Shown piece after piece: positions 2,611 through 11,479 of a stretch of 11,691 bases of DNA. Origin of the DNA: a virus (lineage: Duplodnaviria > Heunggongvirae > Uroviricota > Caudoviricetes); the IMG/VR virus record IMGVR_UViG_3300011952_000006. One strand, written 5' to 3'. Both the position numbers and the translations under genes were made by a program. How positions within the stretch are numbered: position 1 is the first letter of the stretch; every line of letters begins with the position of its first letter. The notes under the pieces were generated by a model, which saw only the letters and a list, made by a program, of their open reading frames with translations, made no database searches and was not told the origin of the DNA.

Positions 2611-3726
2611 TTAAATCCCTGCTTTTCTGAATACCTGTGCATCACGCTCACGGAGCTGCTTCAGCGTCAGCCATTCGCCTTTATCGGTGTAAAATTCATC
2701 TGGCGACATACCACCATCCCGAATCAGCTTTGCTCGGGTTTCCCCCACAATCTGTTTTTGTCTGGTGTAAGGCTGACGCAAAAACCATTCCCTGTAGGTT
2801 GTATCTCCGGCTACCACGCCATCCATGCTGGCCCGCTCAGCCGGGGAAATATCACGAACATCAATACCCAGTTCCTTCGCTGATTTCAGAATGAACGTTT
2901 CCGTTGAGCGGCAGCAGAAATGAATTTTTCCCGGCCCCTGCAAATAAGGCACGCTGTGACCTACAGGTTTATTATTCAGCGTATATTTGAGGCGATCCCT
3001 GATTCGACATTGTGGCGTAGTACGATTATCAAGCGTTGATAACCATTGCTTACCCTTAATCAAATCATTATTCGCGCTGGCAAAACTCTCACGGGCAGTA
3101 GCAGCAAGATGTCCAACCGCTGTTTTTGCAATGCTGGCCGCATTAGCCCGGCTCATCTGCAATGCACCATCCTGAAATCCCTTACTGACATGTCCCCGAA
3201 TTTTTCTTGCGATCTGCTCATTGGTATCCCCCAGCAAAAAACCCTGACGCACCGTATTTGTTATGCGTCTGAGCCGATCCGCCTCAAGATCTGAGGCCCA
3301 CTCACTGAGCAGTCGTCCCTGGAATGGTCGCGCCATTGCAGCGGCATAAAGTGCATCAGGAGAGATACCAACCAGAGGGTGAACATCAGCAACAAAATCA
3401 GGTAGCATAGAATCAAACAGACTTAACTGATAACCAGCCTCATAAATTGCCAGCTCGTTCAGCTCTCCGGAGAGACTGGTAAACATGCTGTTAATAGCAG
3501 TGCGGTTAACCTTTCTGACGCTCGCCAGAAGTGACTCCAGGCGCTTAACGGTAAAATTACCTGGATCGAGGCTGTCCAGTGCTATCAGCAGGCGAGCAGT
3601 AAGTTCCGCATCGCTGTCATTCAGTATTTTCACCATTCTGGCAGCCACGCCAGTGCTATAGCGGGATATCCAGACTGCATGAGCAATTGATTCATCACGC
3701 AGCCGTTCATTCACGGTTTGCATCAT
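2611..3726 (-). CDS. Minor head morphogenesis protein, phage Mu F-like / SPP1 gp7-like, 371 aa
   Basis: ORF track; size and position directly after the portal gene, as in SPP1-type head modules. Start overlaps the portal stop (3707..3709) by about 20 nt, suggesting translational coupling. Confidence 0.8.
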   Translation of the reverse strand: MMQTVNERLRDESIAHAVWISRYSTGVAARMVKILNDSDAELTARLLIALDSLDPGNFTVKRLESLLASVRKVNRTAINSMFTSLSGELNELAIYEAGYQLSLFDSMLPDFVADVHPLVGISPDALYAAAMARPFQGRLLSEWASDLEADRLRRITNTVRQGFLLGDTNEQIARKIRGHVSKGFQDGALQMSRANAASIAKTAVGHLAATARESFASANNDLIKGKQWLSTLDNRTTPQCRIRDRLKYTLNNKPVGHSVPYLQGPGKIHFCCRSTETFILKSAKELGIDVRDISPAERASMDGVVAGDTTYREWFLRQPYTRQKQIVGETRAKLIRDGGMSPDEFYTDKGEWLTLKQLRERDAQVFRKAGI

Positions 3727-5113
3727 TGATTTCCATCAGCATTACACTCTGATTTTTTAATTCATCGATCACTTCCTCTGGACGGGAATCCTGATCGATA
3801 AATTTCAACGCCTGCAACACCCGAACCGCATCAATCTGACGTATATCACCGCCCTGACGCAATGACTGAACAGCCAGCGCGGAGGATGAGTCAAACACCT
3901 GGGCAGATACATCCAGTTCAGTGCGCACATCCACATTGCCACCGCAACTCTCTCCGCTCCATTCCGCCATTATCTGGAGAATATTATCGAGGGCATCTTC
4001 GAGGGAGTTCGCCATTGTATAAAGCGGCGAGTTTTCCTGCATTCGCTCTTCATTAGTCTGATCAACAGATTTGGTGGATGTATTTTCAGCACGCAGAAGT
4101 TTAGCGCCGGCATGACGCATCTGATTTTCCAGCTTCTCAAGTGATGTTTCGCCAGATTCTATCGCTGCGCCACTATGTTCAACATATTCGAGGCCATTTT
4201 TTGTTCTGTCCTCAAAAATCGTAGCGGTGGATGCACCAACCGTCAGTTCTTCATTCCTGTCCAGCCCGTAGGCCACCAGCAATGGAACGCGGGCAACATG
4301 AAGAATATTGTCCTGCTCGCTCTGGCTTTGCCAGTGCTTGATATTCAGCAAGCCAAGATTAAGCAATGGCGGTGTACCACGCATAAATCCTGTTTTCTTC
4401 GTGTACAGTGTTACCAGAGGAATATCATCACGGCTGGTATTCCATGACTCATGAAGCGTCCAGACAGATTCGCCATTAGTGCCTTCGCTACGTCGATAAA
4501 TTTCAACTCGACGGGGCATAATATGGCGGATCTGCTCCACCTTCTTCTGCCCGAAATCATCACCATCAATAATGATGACCTCTTTTATACGCAAATCAGT
4601 GAGAACAACTTTCCCTTTTTCAACTTTCGATTTCCATCCAATAACCTGGCGTGGATTCAGCATCGTAACGTACGGACGACCACCGGTCGCGTTTTCATCG
4701 GCTTTTGTACGAATCTCTTTCATATCCGTTCGTGGATAGTCCACCAGCGCATGTGCCACACCATACTGAAATGCGAGGCTGAAAAATTGCTGCGCCCACA
4801 CATCCAGTCGGCTCCCCTCCATGTCGATATTTTCTGCATATTCCCTGATTTTTTCCGGCGTTTCCTCACTCAATACTGTCGGCTCTGCAAATATGCGCCC
4901 AATATTTTGCTTGATGCTTTCTTCATACACAGGAAGTAGCGTAGCCACAGACAGGCGTTTTTTATAAGCGTCTTCATCTTCATTAGGCCATTTGGGGAGA
5001 TAATTTTCCCCCTGCCTGCGCATTTCAAGCGTACCGCCCATCAATGCGTCGTTAATATCCCACGCCTCCAGCATATCGTTATAGTCGAGGTTGGGTGTTG
5101 ATATATCAGCCAT
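3707..5113 (-). CDS. Portal protein, 468 aa
   Basis: ORF track; size and position immediately after the terminase large subunit (TAA-tt-ATG junction at 5116/5113). Conserved terminase-portal-minor head order. Confidence 0.85.
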   Translation of the reverse strand: MADISTPNLDYNDMLEAWDINDALMGGTLEMRRQGENYLPKWPNEDEDAYKKRLSVATLLPVYEESIKQNIGRIFAEPTVLSEETPEKIREYAENIDMEGSRLDVWAQQFFSLAFQYGVAHALVDYPRTDMKEIRTKADENATGGRPYVTMLNPRQVIGWKSKVEKGKVVLTDLRIKEVIIIDGDDFGQKKVEQIRHIMPRRVEIYRRSEGTNGESVWTLHESWNTSRDDIPLVTLYTKKTGFMRGTPPLLNLGLLNIKHWQSQSEQDNILHVARVPLLVAYGLDRNEELTVGASTATIFEDRTKNGLEYVEHSGAAIESGETSLEKLENQMRHAGAKLLRAENTSTKSVDQTNEERMQENSPLYTMANSLEDALDNILQIMAEWSGESCGGNVDVRTELDVSAQVFDSSSALAVQSLRQGGDIRQIDAVRVLQALKFIDQDSRPEEVIDELKNQSVMLMEINDANRE

Positions 5114-5115
5114 AA

Positions 5116-6417
5116 TTAAATCCGAAGTGATGTGACTCTTCCGGTCGGTTTGACAATAGGGAATTGCTTAACGATGAAATAACCTCCGGCATCATTCGGG
5201 TGATCATTGCCAGATTTTTTATCAGGCTCCCCCTTCTCATCCCAGACCTGTTGCTCCAGAGATTCGGCATATAACGGGCAACGCTTCACATTAACTTTAT
5301 AGCGACGCTCACCATTGGCATTGCAGAACATTGCATTCATTGAGTTAACGCGATCTTTTACTGGCGGGTTCGAGCTGTTCACCACAACGTTAAAACCAGC
5401 CTGCTTAAGCTGGGCTATATCCGTCGTACTTGCGTTACTTGATTTTCTGGAATCCCCGGAAGCATCTGGATAAATATAAATTTCCCTCACTTTCCGGTAA
5501 TCATTCCCATCATACAGCCAGAAGCGTTCTTTAATGATGCGGATCATATCCGGCGTATCGTAGGCATTGATGATTTCAGTTACCGCACATGGAAGCCCCA
5601 AACGCAGCACATGGACGATCCCCGCCATCTTTCCAACGTTAAAATCCATCCCAATATAAATCGGCTCCCCTGGCTGCTCCACTTCTTCGCAATTATTCAG
5701 TTTCCGGTCAAACTGATGGTAAACAGTACCACTTGTCAGGTTAGTAAACTGTCCTCGAAGATAGGCTTTAATCAGCTCTGGAGGGTATGATTCAAGAAGC
5801 GAAGGAATGTAATCTGCTGGCAGGTTCTTTTCATTATCGAAAGTAGATGCCTGCACCAGACCATACAGTGAGGCCAGCTCTGTTTTTTCACGCACGGCTT
5901 TAACAAACTGCTCGTAGACAAATTTGAATCCTTCCGGCGTGGTTGTAACGTCAATACCGTTGCGAAGTCCATCAATCTTATAACGCATACGTGCAATTAT
6001 CTTGCGCCACGCCGTTCTGGCTTTTTCCTTCGGCAAAATGTCCAGTTCATCCACCAACGCATTACCAATTTTGAAACCGACGATCGTTTGTGGCTTCTCC
6101 ATCGATCTGCAGATAGTGGTTCCCCGATACTGGCGTCCGTAATAAAAGTGAACCTCTTTATTTCCCTCATTAATTTTTACGTTCAATCCCCAGTCAGCAG
6201 CAACTTCTTCCACTGTAGGGTAAAAAATATCGCGAATTTGGGGATACGTTGGCGCAAAATATCCCTGATTTATACCTGGATGCTCCCAAATCCCCTTGCA
6301 TATGCCGCCACACCCAACCCATGTTTTGCCCGAGCCAAAACCAGCAATATAGGCTTTAAATTTATGGGGCATTGAAAGAAATCGCGCCTGAGGCACATTA
6401 AGCGTCGGAGAGATCAT
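5116..6417 (-). CDS. terL: Terminase large subunit (PBSX XtmB / Terminase_3-like)
   Basis: Walker A P-loop AGFGSGKTW near the N-terminus; C-terminal nuclease-like acidic motifs (IYIGMDFN, YIYPDASGD). ORF track 5116..6426 begins with GTG; preferred start is ATG 6417..6415 (MISPTLNV) with AAGGAG 8 nt upstream. Overlaps the terS stop by about 20 nt. Confidence 0.9.
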   Translation of the reverse strand: MISPTLNVPQARFLSMPHKFKAYIAGFGSGKTWVGCGGICKGIWEHPGINQGYFAPTYPQIRDIFYPTVEEVAADWGLNVKINEGNKEVHFYYGRQYRGTTICRSMEKPQTIVGFKIGNALVDELDILPKEKARTAWRKIIARMRYKIDGLRNGIDVTTTPEGFKFVYEQFVKAVREKTELASLYGLVQASTFDNEKNLPADYIPSLLESYPPELIKAYLRGQFTNLTSGTVYHQFDRKLNNCEEVEQPGEPIYIGMDFNVGKMAGIVHVLRLGLPCAVTEIINAYDTPDMIRIIKERFWLYDGNDYRKVREIYIYPDASGDSRKSSNASTTDIAQLKQAGFNVVVNSSNPPVKDRVNSMNAMFCNANGERRYKVNVKRCPLYAESLEQQVWDEKGEPDKKSGNDHPNDAGGYFIVKQFPIVKPTGRVTSLRI

Positions 6418-7492
6418 CTTCATCACTCCTTACTCTGGCATCAACCACATTAATATTGATCGCCACAGGCTGGGGATGTTCATTATCTTCCACCGTTTCG
6501 ATCTCTTTGCCCAGCTTCTGGTTTTCCATTCTGCGTCGTTCAATTTCCAGTTCCTGTAGCCGTTTATCTGCACATAAAGCCCCGCCAGCAGAAAACAAAC
6601 GCAACAATTCACGCCGGGCGGCAGCCTTATCCTCCAGCAGGATCTCAACGCCGAATTTTCCGAATTTTGCCCCTGCATATAATTGCCGCGCATCCCCATC
6701 AAGCAGAGTGGTATCAGCCATATAAAGCTGTCCCGTTCCCTCACCGCAGCACTTCGGGCAGTCCGGATTGGGTATGGCGTTATCAACAAAGCCGAGGCCT
6801 CCATATTCCGGTTCGGGTTTGCCATCTCTGGAAGCCTGCGCCGCTGCCTTGTCGAATTCTGCTATATCGCGCCACTGGTAGAGATGATTCTCGCCCCAGC
6901 AATAACGGCAGTTAACACGGCGAAATTGTGCAAGCTGATTGGGGTCGGCCAGGACAATAGCCATCAACTGACTCACTAGTAAATCCAGGTCTGCGGTATA
7001 GCGTTTCTGGTACTGATTGCGGAAGTAGCTGATAGCGCGAAAAACCCTGGCATTTCTAAGCATACGACTGGCGTTGCTGTTAGCTGTCGCACCTTGCCCC
7101 TCATAACCGGCTAGTCGGTACGCCTCTGTCGGCTTTTTACCCTGAGCAACAAGCATCGCAAACTTAGCCTGCTGGTCAGAAATGCCGAATTCATCGGGAC
7201 AGAACGAAAATTCCTCCGCGTCGCCCTCATTCAGGCCCGCATCGAATACTGGCTTTTTTTCCTGAGATTTTTCGTTCCGCTTTTGTGCAGTCTGCGCAGA
7301 TTTTTTCTGCGCACTTTTTTGCGCAGTTTTGCGCATTTCTGTCTGCGCATTTTTCGGAGGTTTTTTGATGTAACGACGGGCTGTTGCGTAATTCAGTCCC
7401 CTTGCTTCACACCATGCCACCGGAGATATACCGGAGCGGGTGTATTCAGCAATATACTCCTGCTGCAACGCCCCCCAGTCCGGTCTGCTCAT
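6398..7492 (-). CDS. terS: Terminase small subunit, unusually long (364 aa): N-terminal HTH, Terminase_2-like core (EAYRLAGYEGQGATANSNASRMLRNARVFRAI), Cys4 zinc-ribbon-like motif (CRYC...CPKCC), acidic C-terminal tail
   Basis: ORF track; motif pattern recalled for Terminase_2-family small subunits; sits directly upstream of and overlapping terL; AGGA RBS 8 nt upstream of ATG 7492. Confidence 0.75.
   Translation of the reverse strand: MSRPDWGALQQEYIAEYTRSGISPVAWCEARGLNYATARRYIKKPPKNAQTEMRKTAQKSAQKKSAQTAQKRNEKSQEKKPVFDAGLNEGDAEEFSFCPDEFGISDQQAKFAMLVAQGKKPTEAYRLAGYEGQGATANSNASRMLRNARVFRAISYFRNQYQKRYTADLDLLVSQLMAIVLADPNQLAQFRRVNCRYCWGENHLYQWRDIAEFDKAAAQASRDGKPEPEYGGLGFVDNAIPNPDCPKCCGEGTGQLYMADTTLLDGDARQLYAGAKFGKFGVEILLEDKAAARRELLRLFSAGGALCADKRLQELEIERRRMENQKLGKEIETVEDNEHPQPVAININVVDARVRSDEDDLSDA
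7284..7360. repeat. Phased direct repeats of the palindromic hexamer TGCGCA (5 exact copies plus one TGTGCA), each followed by a T-tract, inside the 5-prime part of terS
   Basis: Copies start at 7293, 7308, 7320, 7330 and 7344, with a variant at 7284; spacing 10-15 bp. On the coding strand they encode the Ala-Gln-Lys repeat segment of TerS (KTAQKSAQKKSAQTAQK). Confidence 0.8.
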
Positions 7493-7495
7493 CAG

Positions 7496-7747
7496 TTAGT
7501 CCTGATTTTTATCCACCCTGAGTAGTTCGCGCAGAGCAAAGGCATCCCCTTTTCTGGCAAGCTTAAACAATGCCGCTCGTAACTCGGCTTCACCTTTCGC
7601 TCTGCCCTTACGGATGGCCGCATAAAAATCTGTCATTGCTTCCCGATTTTCTTTCAGTCGGTTCAGATCAACATCCAGAACGTCAGCGATTTGTTGTGCA
7701 GTCATCCGGCACGCTGCCAGAGACTCGACTTTCGAATACGGAATCAT
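7496..7747 (-). CDS. Small putative DNA-binding protein (HTH-like, 83 aa) immediately upstream of terS
   Basis: ORF track; ATG 7747..7745 with extended SD-like GGGGGTGA 3 nt upstream; stop 3 nt before the terS ATG. Its 5-prime end overlaps the 3-prime end of the glycosyltransferase-like gene by 65 nt (23 nt if the start is Met15 at 7705). Basic, helix-rich sequence (MTAQQIADVLDV...AALFKLARKG). Confidence 0.5.
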   Translation of the reverse strand: MIPYSKVESLAACRMTAQQIADVLDVDLNRLKENREAMTDFYAAIRKGRAKGEAELRAALFKLARKGDAFALRELLRVDKNQD

Positions 7748-8615
7748 TTGTCACCCCCATTGATATGCAGGGTGTCTTCTTCCTGTATTTTTCGTGAAGG
7801 ATTTTTACTGCAGCGTTGTTCCAGGTGACCTGATGGTGAATGCGTTTATGGCTGGCACCCATCAGTGAGATTTTTACGCACGACGGCGCATACATGACGG
7901 AGTAAAAACTTTTAACGTAGGTTCCGGAATCCAGATACAGCTCGGTCATTCCGCCGCTGTTTTTCTGCGTCTGTTTCTGCCCTAACTGGACAGCACCGAT
8001 CGTCATAAACAATTCACCACAGCGACCGAGATTCGTGTACGTATTCACATCCTCGTTAATGCGCCCCATGAATGAGAACGGTCGATCAACCGAACAGATA
8101 AAGCTGTTCATTGCCTTGCGTTTCACCCACGAAGCATGGCCGCCATTGTCACCAAGAAAATCCCCGCCCTGCGACATAGCGATGGAAAGAGCAGGTATTG
8201 ATTCGTAGTACGCCAGCATTTCAGAAAGGATCGCATCCAGTTTCCTTATCGGAAAATAGGCCTGGTCATAGTTGCGATCCACCCGAAACTGGAACTCGTG
8301 ATAATCATCATCGAGCTGAATGAAGTATTTACACCCGACCAGTTTTGCCAGGTCGAAACAGGCATTACGGGCGTAAAAAATTGAGCGGCGGTCACAGAAA
8401 TTATCGGCTTCGTCAAAACGACTGGCGATATCGGCTTTGGAAAACACCAGCACCTGTTCACCAAATTCAGCCATGTACTGATGCCGTGTCTTATCTTCAT
8501 CATCAACAACGATAAAAATTTTCCCGGTATAGCCAGCACGACGCAACGTCCGGTAAGTCAGAACTTTGTCCGGTCGCCCGTGAGTCAGAATAAAGGCGCA
8601 AAAATCATCACGCAT
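7683..8615 (-). CDS. Soluble GT-A-fold (nucleotide-diphospho-sugar transferase superfamily) glycosyltransferase-like protein, about 310 aa from MRDDFCAF...
   Basis: ORF track 7683..8636; start trimmed to ATG 8615..8613, 3 nt after a strong GAGGAGGAGG RBS. N-terminal strand-turn pattern FILTHGRPDKV...GKIFIVVDDED resembles the GT2 signature (xIPTYNRPxxL...IVVDDGS); ARNAC..LAKLVGCKYFIQLDDDYHEF gives a DxD-like motif. No hydrophobic TM segments. No methyltransferase motifs (DPPY/NPPY, FxGxG). Confidence 0.6.
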   Translation of the reverse strand: MRDDFCAFILTHGRPDKVLTYRTLRRAGYTGKIFIVVDDEDKTRHQYMAEFGEQVLVFSKADIASRFDEADNFCDRRSIFYARNACFDLAKLVGCKYFIQLDDDYHEFQFRVDRNYDQAYFPIRKLDAILSEMLAYYESIPALSIAMSQGGDFLGDNGGHASWVKRKAMNSFICSVDRPFSFMGRINEDVNTYTNLGRCGELFMTIGAVQLGQKQTQKNSGGMTELYLDSGTYVKSFYSVMYAPSCVKISLMGASHKRIHHQVTWNNAAVKILHEKYRKKTPCISMGVTNDSVFESRVSGSVPDDCTTNR

Positions 8616-9353
8616 ATTCCTCCTCCTCACCACCATGCATGATCTCCACCATGCGCTGCGTCATCCGGACAAATCCATTTTCAATAGCCTGCTGATAATC
8701 AATGATCACCAGCGCCGACTCCTCGAAAAAACACTGAATTTCAGAGGGGGCGTGAGCGTAATAGTCCGCAATTCTGCTGAAATTAAACACCGTGNNNNNN
8801 NNNNACGTATCCGGCTGATCAGCTCCTGAGTTTTCGTATCGTCGTACAGTTCACTGATATCCGGTTTACCGCCCGACGGCTCATAAACAGGCGTATCAAT
8901 TTTCGTCGTATACGGCTCCTCCTCATTTCCTGTACCGGGCAAAACATCCGTCAACAGTTCATCAATTTCTGTCGGGATGAAGCCTGTCAGGGAGACATCA
9001 AAATCAGCATTGATTAGGTCCGACAGCTCCATCCGCAACAGATCTTCATCCCAGCCAGCATTCATCGGCAGGCGATTATCTGCCAGGCGGTACGCCTTTT
9101 TCTGCTCATCCGTCAGGCCAGACAGAACAATGACCGGAACAGAATCCATTTTGAGCATTTCAGCCGCCATAACACGACCGTGACCCGCAATAATTTCGCC
9201 CTTTTCATCAATCAGCACCGGATTAGTCCAGCCGAATTGCTTAATACTTTCTACCAGTTGTGCCACCTGCTCAGGGCTGTGTGTCCTGGCATTGTGTGCA
9301 TACGGAGACAGTTCTTGTAACGGGCGATAGACGATCTTCAATTTCTCGCTCAT
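8608..9353 (-). CDS. ParB/Srx-like N-terminal (nuclease-type) domain protein with an uncharacterised C-terminal region; interrupted by a 10-N assembly gap
   Basis: ORF track 8706..9353; ATG 9353..9351 with GAGG RBS. N-terminal ParB/Srx-type motifs (YAHNARTHSPEQV, IIAGHGRVMAAEML). The frame that is open from the gap down to stop 8610..8608 (ORF track 8608..8790, opening with GTG next to the gap) is the likely true C-terminus, ...MHGGEEEEYA. The stop overlaps the downstream glycosyltransferase-like start as ATGCGTGA. Confidence 0.7.
8795..8804. other. Assembly gap (10 N) inside the ParB-like gene
   Basis: Run of N characters; true length unknown, so frame continuity across it cannot be assessed. 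Confidence 0.95.
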
Positions 9354-9584: not shown

Positions 9585-9883
9585 AATTTTCTCCTGTTTT
9601 AATGCCCCTTGCCGCCGGGCAGTTGATCAAATTTCATCTTGATTCGGCAAGATTTAGAATGAATAAGATAAAATTAGCACACGCAGCAGAATTTCATGCT
9701 TTCCGGACGCTGGCGCACCCTTCATTTTTCAGCAAAATATTCTGCTCTTACAGGCGATCAGTTCTGCATACACTGCCGGACACTATCAACAATTTCGCAG
9801 ACCTGAGAAGCTGTATCGAAAAGCTGGCGCGCCTTATCCAAGCTGACGCACCCCACCAATAAAAAAGGCACCAGTATCGCTAC

Positions 9884-9977
9884 NNNNNNNNNNNNNNNNN
9901 NNNNNNNNNNNNNNNNNNNNNNNNNNNNNNNNNNNNNNNNNNNNNNNNNNNNNNNNNNNNNNNNNNNNNNNNNNNNN
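9884..9977. other. Assembly gap (94 N)
   Basis: Run of N characters interrupting a minus-strand gene; missing sequence of unknown content. Confidence 0.95.
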
Positions 9978-10082
9978 ACGCACAGCCCAAATCAGAACAG
10001 CGACCGCCACAAGGCGAATTGCAAAGGCCGCAGCCCTTGTCAAATCAAGGCTCGCGGGAGTTTCCACTTCAATACCTTTCAT
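9978..10082 (-). CDS. N-terminal fragment of a membrane-anchored protein (MKGIEVETPASLDLTRAAAFAIRLVAVAVLIWAVR...), truncated by the gap; possibly an i-spanin
   Basis: ATG 10082..10080 with GAGG about 9 nt upstream; a short polar N-terminus followed by one hydrophobic helix, the usual i-spanin (Rz-like) N-terminal architecture. The ORF track extends this frame from a GTG at 10142 to 9834 through the gap. Confidence 0.35.
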
Positions 10083-10170
10083 AATGGACAACCTCAAAAA
10101 GAATCTTTTATACTTTCCCACGAGGATTTTCTCCGTACTCACTACTCACAATTTCCTCTTTGACGTGAAA

Positions 10171-10308: not shown

Positions 10309-10854
10309 TTAAACTGCTACGCGCACTTTCATCCAGCCGTAGACAAACGACTCGTTGGCCTCGCGTTTTTCTGCCAGCTCCAGATAGCGGTCGCCCTGCG
10401 TGCAATTCAGCGCCTTCAGCATCACCAGTTCGCCGTCTTTGCCGCGTTTTTGCAGATAAGTCCGTAGTGCATTAATCGTGCGGGGGCCGATACGCCCGTC
10501 TGCGTCCATATCCGGGAACAATTTGCCTTGCAGGTTGAAAACGTTCAGCCAGCGTTGGAGCATTTTCGATGCTACGGACGGCCCCATATTCACACCGGTA
10601 TCACACAACTCTGCAGCAATATCAGAGGATAATGCGGCCACCTGATCAAAGCGTGGTCCGAACCAGTAATCCGCCTCAAGGATTTCCAGCGCCTGTTCGC
10701 GTGTCAGGTCACGCATATCGCCCTGATATCCGTGAGCGCGGGCGACTTTTTCCGTAATACCCCATTTTGTCGGTCCGCCTTTATCATCCGGGTGATTGAC
10801 GTAACCGCCCTCTTTTCCCAGAACTTCGTCAAAAATTTCATCTTTCGACTTCAT
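10309..10854 (-). CDS. Endolysin: GH108-family lysozyme-like N-terminal domain with a C-terminal peptidoglycan-binding domain
   Basis: GH108-type signature near the N-terminus (EGGYVNHPDDKGGPTKWGIT). ORF track 10309..10875; start trimmed to ATG 10854..10852 (MKSKDEIF), giving a TGA-t-ATG junction with the upstream membrane-protein gene. Confidence 0.85.
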   Translation of the reverse strand: MKSKDEIFDEVLGKEGGYVNHPDDKGGPTKWGITEKVARAHGYQGDMRDLTREQALEILEADYWFGPRFDQVAALSSDIAAELCDTGVNMGPSVASKMLQRWLNVFNLQGKLFPDMDADGRIGPRTINALRTYLQKRGKDGELVMLKALNCTQGDRYLELAEKREANESFVYGWMKVRVAV

Positions 10855-10855
10855 A

Positions 10856-11134
10856 TCAGCGCCTTCGTAATACAAAGATTTTTGAAACGTTCCCGCGTGC
10901 GCGAATCACCAACACGCAGAACAGCAGATTAAGCCCCACCGCCAGCCAGTTCGCCGCTAACGGGCGACCGCACAGATAGCTGAGTGGTGCAAAGGCATAA
11001 AGCAGCATCAGCAGCCAAGCCAGCCATGACATCAGCGGTTTATGTCTGGAATCACGGCGACGATAAAAAAAGAGCGTCAGCACAATAACCGTGCATAACG
11101 CCACATTCAGCAGGCCGGGAAGGTTACTTAACAT
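10856..11134 (-). CDS. Small membrane protein of the lysis cassette (holin- or antiholin-like, 92 aa, about 3 predicted TM helices)
   Basis: MLSNLPGLLNVALCTVIVLTLFFYRRRDSRHKPLMSWLAWLLMLLYAFAPLSYL...VSKIFVLRRR. ATG 11134..11132 directly preceded by GGAGGAGG; lies between the holin and the endolysin; basic C-terminus. Confidence 0.6.
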   Translation of the reverse strand: MLSNLPGLLNVALCTVIVLTLFFYRRRDSRHKPLMSWLAWLLMLLYAFAPLSYLCGRPLAANWLAVGLNLLFCVLVIRARGNVSKIFVLRRR

Positions 11135-11479
11135 TGCCACCTCCTCCGCCCCGCAGGCGGGAGAACAGACCGGACACCAGTGATGCGATATCCTGCTGGT
11201 GGATGANNNNNNNNNNGCATCTGCCGATGTACCGTCATAACCTGTTTTTGCCGCTATCCAGGCTGACAGCACACGCGCTCCCAGCACGCCGATAATGAAC
11301 GACACCAGAAAATGCGCCGCCACACGCCAGGCTGAAAGCGCCTGCGGCATCGTTGCCACAAATAACGCCCCGGCGAACGCACCAAACACAATCCCGAAAT
11401 CCGTTCCGGTAAACAGCCCGAATACCGTCGCCCCGCCGAGCGCCACAGCCGTGCCGGAACCGGATAAGGGTTCAGACAT
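11128..11479 (-). CDS. Holin (class I-like, 3 predicted TM helices), interrupted by a 10-N gap
   Basis: ATG 11479..11477 with AGGAG RBS (caggagaaaaaagtATG). N-terminal part MSEPLSGSGTAVALGGATVFGLFTGTDFGIVFGAFAGALFVATMPQALSAWRVAAHFLVSFIIGVLGARVLSAWIAAKTGYDGTSAD. After the gap the most protein-like frame ends ...GVRSVLPPAGRRRWQC with TAA 11130..11128 overlapping the next gene's ATG. The ORF-track extension to 11602 is probably spurious. Confidence 0.6.
11207..11216. other. Assembly gap (10 N) inside the holin gene
   Basis: Run of N characters; length unknown. Confidence 0.95.

Follow-up and report, generated by a model that had tools for sequence, protein, structure and literature searches.

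Why should a temperate phage keep, just ahead of its terminase genes, a gene for a ParB-like protein whose end overlaps the start of a gene for a glycosyltransferase? The question is raised by an 11,691-nucleotide stretch of tailed-virus DNA (IMG/VR record IMGVR_UViG_3300011952_000006), hereafter called the window, whose minus strand carries the two genes at 9353..8608 and 8615..7683. An earlier note, made from the letters of this DNA, had described them as a ParB/Srx-like protein coupled to a GT-A glycosyltransferase-like protein, and had imagined a role in DNA or protein glycosylation. We find that the two genes form an obligate, overlapping pair, which is autonomous and extremely widespread. 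As judged from alignments, the constant partner of the glycosyltransferase is not the ParB_N domain but the C-terminal motif and domain of the 'ParB' protein, an adaptor domain previously undescribed. We give an even chance to the proposal that the pair is a DNA glycosyltransferase tethered by its adaptor, which would modify phage DNA ahead of packaging.

The coordinates, overlap and ribosome-binding site given in the earlier note could all be read on the minus strand. The upstream gene, here called the adaptor gene (ParB/Srx-like; ynaK family; 8608..9353), starts with the ATG at 9353, preceded by GAGG 5 nucleotides (nt) upstream, and stops with the TGA at 8610..8608. The glycosyltransferase gene (7683..8615, minus strand) starts with the ATG at 8615..8613 and stops at 7683, the overlap being 8 nt (ATGCGTGA, 8615..8608). 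The coupling junction as a whole (8608..8628, minus strand) also includes the ribosome-binding site GAGGAGGAGG at 8628..8619, 3 nt ahead of the ATG. The start at 8615 was preferred over an in-frame ATG at 8636 because homologues begin at the same MRDDF and PGAP predicts the same product of 310 amino acids (aa). For the adaptor gene, start and stop are where the earlier note had put them, but the note did not mention that the frame is broken in the window by a run of 10 N (8795..8804), where the C-terminal domain begins. In the letters as given, 9353..8608 has 746 nt and is out of frame, and the open reading frame (ORF) is split between two frames, in the window only, because the 10 N stand for 56 nt of real sequence. 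In unmasked Escherichia coli relatives the adaptor is a single ORF of 263 aa (e.g., locus L001, 21009-21800).

The downstream protein is a member of the TAGT family by sequence, fold and motifs. It matched Pfam PF20691 ('TET-associated glycosyltransferase', TAGT) with 122.3 bits against a cut-off of 27.5 (E 3.4e-35, residues 8-222), a family present in all listed homologues, and it also matched PHROG 842 ('beta-glucosyl-HMC-alpha-glucosyltransferase') with an E value of 6e-104; the newer PGAP name for the product is 'GREB1-related protein'. The peptides that had led the earlier note to a GT-A enzyme with a DxD motif (FILTHGRPDKV, IVVDDED and YFIQLDDDYHEF) are present in the translation, and the assignment itself held up. 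The DxD motif, D102-D103-D104 (QLDDDY; 8304..8312, minus strand), is invariant in close homologues and occurs in at least 90% of a 73-sequence alignment; R14, N187-E188-D189, R258 and H260-H261 are likewise invariant or nearly so, and R14, DDD102-104 and NED187-189 match the R...DDD...EDY/F signature of those phage GT-A enzymes by which 5-hydroxymethylcytosine in DNA is glycosylated. The AlphaFold2 (AF2) model computed from the 73-sequence alignment is globular and confidently folded as GT-A, with helices mostly of 4-15 residues. It replaced a model from 29 homologues that was poor in its C-terminal half (pLDDT, the predicted local distance difference test, of 69.7) and gave weak Foldseek matches. 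The structural neighbours include glycogenin, SunS/ThuS, GalNAc-Ts and POMGNT1, which are protein or peptide glycosyltransferases, and the prophage GT-A enzyme TarP, while a structural alignment with a T-even-type TAGT member gave 13% identity; no PDB chain was matched by sequence. The globular model, together with the lack of any membrane-protein family among the Pfam matches (no transmembrane predictor was run), agrees with the soluble enzyme, free of transmembrane helices, of the earlier note. Within TAGT the enzyme belongs to a distinct, tightly conserved subfamily, with a conserved extension of ~65 aa (residues ~223-285) past the Pfam model; the C-terminal ~25 aa form a tail of low model confidence that is specific to the lineage.

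The adaptor is strongly acidic (isoelectric point, pI, 4.46; net charge about -26; C-terminal half pI 4.33; adaptor pI overall 4.3-4.6), whereas the enzyme is basic (pI 8.0-8.5; median among TAGTs 8.7), the two partners carrying opposite charges. The N-terminal part of the adaptor, a ParB_N or ParB-CTPase-fold domain with the helical segment after it (residues 1 to ~139; 8937..9353, minus strand), was delimited by Pfam, by alignments with PDB structures of ParB/Spo0J, by PADLOC MTase_II (residues 10-145) and by the partner alignment. The score against ParB_N (PF02195), 29.6 bits with a cut-off of 26.3, and the structure alignments bear out the ParB/Srx-type domain that had been noticed; PHROG 620 was matched with an E value of 2e-73, and the scores of both genes lie far above chance. 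Among the nucleotide-binding motifs, GxxR is present as GHGR (G57, R60), with N21 and N93 conserved as well. The adaptors have another residue in place of the Glu of the canonical GERR (GHGR/GNMR; His in the window protein), and hydrolysis of nucleoside triphosphates (NTPs) by this domain may differ from that of canonical ParB. The adaptor is not a partition ParB, in spite of its ParB-CTPase-fold domain: it has no helix-turn-helix (HTH), no ParB C-terminal domain and no ParA partner, and its TIGR00180 score (36 bits, the match being limited to residues 11-94) is below the cut-off of 58.45. No parA-like gene was found in the window or in the prophage. The ParB_N domain has its homologues instead at the N-terminus of the ParB-methyltransferase fusions of phages (PHROG 498, E 4e-51, positions 31-171 of 633; PADLOC MTase_II, E 4e-38, positions 13-152 of 436 in the model), which makes it fair to say, as the earlier note did, that the usual partner has been replaced by a glycosyltransferase. 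Only the ParB_N part gave these matches, and no methyltransferase domain, by Pfam, is fused to it here.

A relic of the same protein exists in E. coli K-12 MG1655 (NC_000913.3): the Rac gene ynaK (b1365, 87 aa; L175, 6378-6641) corresponds to the first 86 aa of the ParB-like protein with 97.7% identity (window 9353..~9096). It is a truncated remnant, K-12 having lost the C-terminal half of the adaptor and the glycosyltransferase. The neighbour of ynaK, ydaY, was considered as a remnant of the glycosyltransferase gene and rejected, as the two proved unrelated on comparison.

Alignment of the partner proteins distinguishes three parts, namely the moderately conserved ParB_N, an invariant linker motif (Y-T-x-K-I-x-x-P-x-Y-E-P) and a C-terminal domain of ~80 aa. 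In the window the linker motif reads Y-T-T-K-I-D-T-P-V-Y-E-P (residues 148-159; 8877..8912, minus strand), and its Y148, P155 and Y157 are invariant across homologues from bacterial and archaeal viruses. The C-terminal domain, followed by an acidic tail (8611..8876, minus strand; FLxxAAERHTVFNF..IADYYAHA..SALVIIDY.QAIENGFV), is better conserved than ParB_N (consensus FLxxAAERHTVFNF..IADYYAHA..SALVIIDF.KAIE.GF). Pfam, NCBIfam and PADLOC hold no model for it, and searching its profile against the PDB returned only spurious armadillo-repeat matches. It also occurs in stand-alone proteins of ~130 aa: a profile of the linker motif and C-terminal domain matched 4,711 proteins and, among the 120 matches listed, most were stand-alone, ~125-137 aa long and without ParB_N.

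The earlier note had suggested surveying related prophages for co-occurrence of the two genes. An adaptor homologue lay directly upstream, on the same strand, in 86 of 87 glycosyltransferase loci (80 from IMG/VR and 7 others, with 55-100% identity in the glycosyltransferase), usually with adaptor stop and glycosyltransferase start overlapping; the one locus without a partner is a 1.5-kb contig. Clustering of the neighbours found only the adaptor and the glycosyltransferase to be common to all these loci, and the small and large terminase genes downstream come from at least four unrelated families (Terminase_2/6N, Terminase_3, Terminase_4 with TerL_ATPase, and GpA). When the stand-alone adaptors were looked up, a TAGT gene followed directly in three cases out of three, and then in 85 of 87 IMG/VR loci, both exceptions being contig ends. 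A scan of one genome per species, for which the closer glycosyltransferase alignment was used, returned 80 species, from phyla that include Proteobacteria, Bacteroidota, Firmicutes, Verrucomicrobiota, Kiritimatiellae, Acidobacteriota, Actinobacteria, Chlorobi and Saccharibacteria; a partner was present at 75 of 79 loci (64 ParB-type, 4 with the N-terminal peptide QxxLF described below, and 7 with other or truncated N-termini). Overall, when the ~250 loci are taken together, which come from several bacterial phyla and in one case from an archaeal virus, the two genes co-occur in more than 95%, usually with overlapping stop and start.

Isolated viruses have the pair too, as seen in Lactobacillus phage c5, in phages phi jlb1, Ld17, LL-Ku, phiLdb and PMBT4 and in Nocardia phage NTR1. 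In the dairy phage c5 (L258, 90-1713) the two genes are the first after cos, ahead of the terminase, and in the archaeal tailed virus Halovirus HHTV-2 (L257, 4196-5858) they are gp21 and gp22, with the same linker motif and C-terminal domain. In 191-kb Vibrio phages, a stand-alone partner is found next to a large helicase. The divergence of the two proteins is correlated, the identity between TAGTs rising with that between adaptor C-terminal domains with r = 0.69 (206 unique pairs). Among 243 pairs compared (146 ParB-type, 86 QxxLF-type and 11 other), the similarity of TAGTs was nearly the same between the two types (median 49%) and within a type (52-58%). The partner protein is therefore linked to the enzyme as the earlier note had it, but the invariant part of that partner is the C-terminal motif and domain, ParB_N being swapped in thousands of relatives.

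What takes the place of ParB_N is mostly a short peptide. Of 109 short partners, 81 start with MKQxxLFG, that is, with Q-x-x-[LMIF]-F at residues 3-7, and many of the others begin with 'MFG', the start codon probably having been called within the motif; Q3 and F7 are invariant in an alignment of 22 short partners. The MKQxxLF peptide resembles what we take to be the pentapeptide by which bacterial proteins bind the β sliding clamp, QL[SD]LF. Pairs of the QxxLF type adjoin genes of replication and recombination (DnaB helicase, ERF, exonuclease, DnaA_C-like, NinG), and those of the ParB type stand ahead of packaging genes. In the adaptor, a constant C-terminal half is joined to an exchangeable N-terminal module, and the QxxLF architecture, in its replication setting, suggests coupling to the host β sliding clamp. 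Two further arrangements were met. The stand-alone adaptor of Vibrio phage pv27 (L256, 3459-3878), which adjoins a large helicase, lacks the N-terminal QxxLF peptide; one possibility is that the 191-kb Vibrio phages use a different tether. At six stand-alone loci of the QxxLF type (L107, L126, L155, L161, L164, L169), a separate ParB_N-like ORF lies 2-3 kb downstream of the pair; it may be, e.g., a ParB-methyltransferase.

Some TAGTs of the subfamily are tandemly duplicated, and others carry a fused SAM-methyltransferase, sulfotransferase or P-loop kinase-like N-terminal domain (P0151/P0186/P0198, P0128/P0130, P0165 and P0146/P0148). A ParB-type adaptor was directly upstream in all three fusion types and all four loci examined (L002, L259, L261, L262); in L259 a radical-SAM gene is directly upstream as well. 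These fusions and duplications suggest elaborated products, e.g., methylated, sulfated or extended sugars, and clusters for DNA hypermodification are elaborated in a similar way, with a second TAGT and fused domains of this sort. The long TAGT proteins were also searched for 'Rosetta stone' fusions of ParB with glycosyltransferase, but, with one possible exception given below (P0081), the extra domains are SAM-methyltransferase, sulfotransferase, P-loop or a second TAGT.

In the mechanism that we propose, the 310-aa protein, a metal-dependent GT-A enzyme, would use a nucleotide-sugar donor, and the acidic C-terminal motif and domain of the adaptor would bind this basic enzyme. The ParB-CTPase-fold domain would keep the complex on DNA, or would license the glycosyltransferase on double-stranded DNA (dsDNA), as a ParB-like activator does for the dioxygenase 5mYOX176. 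Both genes are translated together, from their overlapping stop and start, in a late operon just ahead of the terminase genes; replicated phage DNA would accordingly be glycosylated before packaging, along its length, with protection from nucleases in the next host as a plausible benefit. In the sister architecture, a QxxLF peptide in place of ParB_N would couple the glycosyltransferase to the host β clamp during replication.

Several observations weigh against this mechanism, the first group of them concerning the acceptor. Searching the window proteins with Pfam, we found no TET/JBP dioxygenase, no thymidylate-synthase-like hydroxymethylase and no C5-methyltransferase, nor are genes of these three kinds present in the annotated 42-kb prophage. 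Among the neighbours of the ParB-type or stand-alone loci (~250 loci), no source of hydroxymethyl-pyrimidines is recurrent; none appeared either in a Pfam census of 149 representatives of neighbour clusters from 80 species, which listed the top 25 families, so that singletons may occur. The TET/JBP (5mYOX) association from which TAGT takes its name was thus not encountered here. The extra neighbours found occasionally are sugar-nucleotide enzymes, a second glycosyltransferase, radical-SAM genes and IbrA-like PAPS reductases. Yet the DNA acceptors described for TAGT-type enzymes are 5-hydroxymethyl (5hm) pyrimidines or a sugar already attached to them. The remaining difficulties concern the adaptor and the enzyme. 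The adaptor has no HTH or ParB-C match in Pfam and no recognisable ParB dimerisation domain, and its ParB_N is itself acidic, so that a clamp formed by it is putative; in the 5mYOX system, ParB mutants in the NTP site are still functional (PMC13229309). The link of the QxxLF type to the β clamp comes from the motif, and the sole possible fusion of adaptor and glycosyltransferase, P0081 (part of the adaptor domain plus TAGT), may be a gene-calling artefact. Finally, one TAGT-family domain, that of GREB1, O-GlcNAcylates a protein.

Since no source of hydroxymethyl-pyrimidines was found, the acceptor could be ordinary DNA, a substrate supplied from elsewhere, or a protein. To our knowledge, phage DNA glycosylation occurs only downstream of hydroxymethyl-pyrimidines made by dedicated phage enzymes. 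It is tentatively conceivable, albeit doubtful, that the sugar is here installed directly on ordinary DNA (one of the canonical bases, the backbone or the end of a molecule) without prior hydroxymethylation, the adaptor plugging the glycosyltransferase into a DNA clamp. That clamp would be either the ParB-type domain of the adaptor, ahead of packaging, or the β clamp of the host, during replication. Rather less likely is a protein target. The enzyme would then modify the adaptor itself, on the invariant Tyr or Thr of YTxKIxxPxYEP and in the manner of glycogenin, or another protein on the DNA, replisome or packaging machinery (β clamp, terminase, portal), with the adaptor as substrate or matchmaker. 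The missing hydroxymethyl-base source, the precedent of GREB1 and the presence of glycogenin, SunS/ThuS, GalNAc-Ts and POMGNT1 among the structural neighbours would all be accounted for in this way, as would the two invariant Tyr residues of a linker that is acidic and otherwise variable. A docking peptide, however, would just as typically have aromatic and proline residues that do not vary, and both N-terminal modules (ParB_N and QxxLF) point to DNA-bound machinery; ParB_N domains of this type are otherwise fused to DNA methyltransferases, and the second glycosyltransferases and the sulfo- and methyltransferase fusions resemble DNA hypermodification clusters. We consider it improbable that the acceptor is a 5hm- or glucosylated pyrimidine, whether this comes from a dioxygenase encoded elsewhere in the phage genome, unlinked or too divergent to be recognised, or belongs to the DNA of a T-even-like phage that superinfects the cell (exclusion or interference). 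All described DNA-acting TAGT-type enzymes do use a 5hm-pyrimidine or glucosyl-5-hydroxymethylcytosine (glucosyl-5hmC), and thousands of 5mYOX-like contigs carry no TET/JBP Pfam annotation (O'Toole et al., PMC13229309), but no gene that could play this part is conserved together with the pair across the ~250 loci, and none was found in the annotated 42-kb Rac-like prophage. Moreover, expression in the lysogen is unlikely, since the pair lies in a late operon and no promoter of its own was detected; indeed, promoter and terminator signals around the pair did not exceed the shuffled expectation.

The two readings that place the enzyme away from DNA-bound machinery, or deny the pairing any function, fare worse. 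Glycosylation of the envelope, i.e., lysogenic conversion of O-antigen or teichoic acid in the style of Gtr or TarP with an unrelated ParB, was one of the outcomes imagined in the earlier note, and TarP-like prophage GT-A enzymes are among the structural neighbours; yet the enzyme is soluble, its gene sits in a late operon beside an obligate partner of the DNA-tethering type, GtrA/GtrB-like partners are lacking, and the same pair serves an archaeal virus as well as phages of Gram-positive and Gram-negative hosts with unrelated envelopes. We regard it as far-fetched. Hardly credible, in our judgement, is the absence of any functional link, with the ParB-like protein as a partition protein or nuclease and the glycosyltransferase as an independent moron beside it. 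Databases do name the adaptor 'chromosome (plasmid) partitioning protein', but the adjacency above 95%, with overlapping frames across phyla, contradicts this reading, the correlated divergence of the two proteins speaks against it, and a partition role sits poorly with the missing parA gene and HTH domain and with the TIGR00180 score below cut-off. Tethered glycosylation of phage DNA thus stays the reading that we prefer.

If ordinary DNA were indeed glycosylated directly, the pair would represent a class of post-replicative DNA glycosylation that has so far gone unnoticed and that is very widespread among the temperate phages of bacteria and archaea. New chemistry of this kind would bear on the evasion of restriction and defence, on artefacts met when induced prophage DNA is sequenced, and on enzymatic tools for DNA labelling. 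The other outcome would be a family of DNA glycosyltransferases redirected to proteins at the replisome or the packaging motor. What is new in our analysis is the adaptor domain as the invariant partner, the exchangeable module for DNA tethering and the autonomous, widespread pair, whereas the TAGT family and the activation of DNA-modifying enzymes by ParB-like proteins were already known.

The window corresponds to the late region of a lambdoid prophage of E. coli that resembles Rac, and its genes all lie on the minus strand. By Pfam and PHROG, the order along that strand is holin(s), a GH108/PG_binding_3 endolysin (10875..10309), an N-masked Rz-like ORF, the adaptor gene and the glycosyltransferase gene, then a small HTH-like ORF, the terminase subunits TerS (7492..6398) and TerL (6426..5116), portal, a MuF-like protein, scaffold and capsid. 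The pair is therefore flanked by endolysin and Rz-like ORF upstream and by TerS and TerL downstream, as expected from the position between lysis and terminase genes reported before. DNA of the window was matched at 98% identity in 1,568 of 5,426 complete E. coli genomes, and at least 80% of the query was covered in 878 of them, roughly one in six, and in 10 phage records. In strain 52F4 (NZ_CM147848), whose prophage has both genes of the pair intact, the region around the matching DNA has intR, xisR, recE, recT, kilR, ydaT and ydaV. Besides the 10 N in the adaptor gene (8795-8804), the window has runs of 94 N (9884-9977, inside the Rz-like ORF, 9834-10142) and 10 N (11207-11216, in the holin region); the length of a run differs from that of the true sequence, at least for 8795-8804.

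Two neighbours outside the pair deserve mention. The small HTH-like ORF (70-83 aa; 7496..7747, minus strand) precedes TerS and overlaps the 3' end of the glycosyltransferase gene by 23-65 nt, depending on its start. In 16 of 46 diverse loci a homologous small gene stands between TAGT and TerS. The match of the ORF to PHROG 309 ('terminase small subunit') is limited to part of that family; possibly the packaging machinery has in it a separate subunit for DNA recognition. The gene at the portal position (window 3707-5113, minus strand; L001, 16029-17465) is labelled by PGAP, in a related prophage, 'anti-CBASS protein Acb1 family protein', and its equivalent in locus L044 (neighbour cluster c7) matches DUF4055; the Acb1 label looks doubtful, or else is the sign of a fused domain.

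As for precedents, the literature searched, whose coverage was incomplete, yielded no published experiment on the adaptor-glycosyltransferase pair, and none of it tied a clamp-binding motif to such a pair. That the pairing is uncharacterised, as the earlier note had it, holds to that extent; its elements have nonetheless been named, the enzyme family as TAGT (PF20691) and the role of ParB by a proposal of 2013 and a demonstration of 2026. According to later papers, Iyer et al. (Aravind and colleagues, 2013) proposed that ParB proteins guide the modification machinery while DNA is being packaged. In a preprint of 2023 on the glycosyltransferases of phage DNA, ~65% of glycosyltransferase contigs were found to have no neighbouring 5mYOX or ThyS, and ParB-like proteins were mentioned among the neighbours in passing; glycosyltransferases go unmentioned in the survey that Kaljevic et al. 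made of the ParB-CTPase fold (PNAS 2025). An IbrA/IbrB-type pair is not what the window holds, as no PAPS_reduct domain was found among its proteins, PAPS_reduct with DUF3440 being an occasional neighbour at other loci. The traits of Gtr-type seroconverting glycosyltransferases (membrane-bound enzyme, GtrA/GtrB partners, expression in the lysogen) were likewise not seen.

The ParB-methyltransferase fusions (PHROG 498, PADLOC MTase_II; Kaljevic et al., PNAS 2025) share with the present pair ParB_N, a position in the prophage late region and a presumed role in DNA modification, but here the enzyme is separate, would transfer a sugar rather than a methyl group, and is linked through a dedicated adaptor domain. 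With other TAGTs, such as the β-glucosyl-HMC-α-glucosyltransferase of T2/T6 or the TET-associated GT-A enzymes of phages, the enzyme has in common the profile, the GT-A fold and the R...DDD...ED signature; its subfamily differs by the ~65-aa extension, the adaptor gene and the lack of association with TET/JBP or a hydroxymethylase. In T2/T6, TAGT adds a second glucose onto α-glucosyl-5hmC DNA, and the trypanosome base-J glucosyltransferase (JGT) has been described as a relative of the family. T4 α-glucosyltransferase has a GT-B fold. It is reported to bind the sliding clamp gp45, with which it co-purifies, and so resembles the QxxLF proposal in being a DNA glucosyltransferase coupled to a clamp and modifying DNA after replication; unlike here, however, the T4 enzyme itself binds the clamp and the phage makes its 5hmC acceptor, whereas clamp binding by the present pair is inferred from the motif. 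In Pfam the T4 enzyme is PF11440, different from TAGT (PMC13229309).

The closest parallel is 5mYOX176/ParB176, in which a phage thymine (T) dioxygenase requires a ParB-like activator on dsDNA (O'Toole et al., PNAS 2026, PMC13229309). ParB176 consists of a nucleotide-binding domain (NBD), a helical segment of ~20 aa, a linker of ~50 aa and a C-terminal domain (CTD), with no DNA-binding domain, and multimer models put 5mYOX176 between NBD and CTD (PMC13229309). The described plan is like that of our adaptor (N-terminal nucleotide-binding domain, helical segment, long linker, C-terminal domain), and in both cases a ParB-like gene stands beside a post-replicative DNA-modifying enzyme, often near terminase genes. 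The enzyme is here a glycosyltransferase instead of an Fe/2-oxoglutarate dioxygenase, and no dioxygenase is present. The adaptor would extend the 2026 result, i.e., the activation of DNA-modifying enzymes by ParB-like proteins, to a model in which interchangeable DNA tethers are joined to one enzyme-docking domain.

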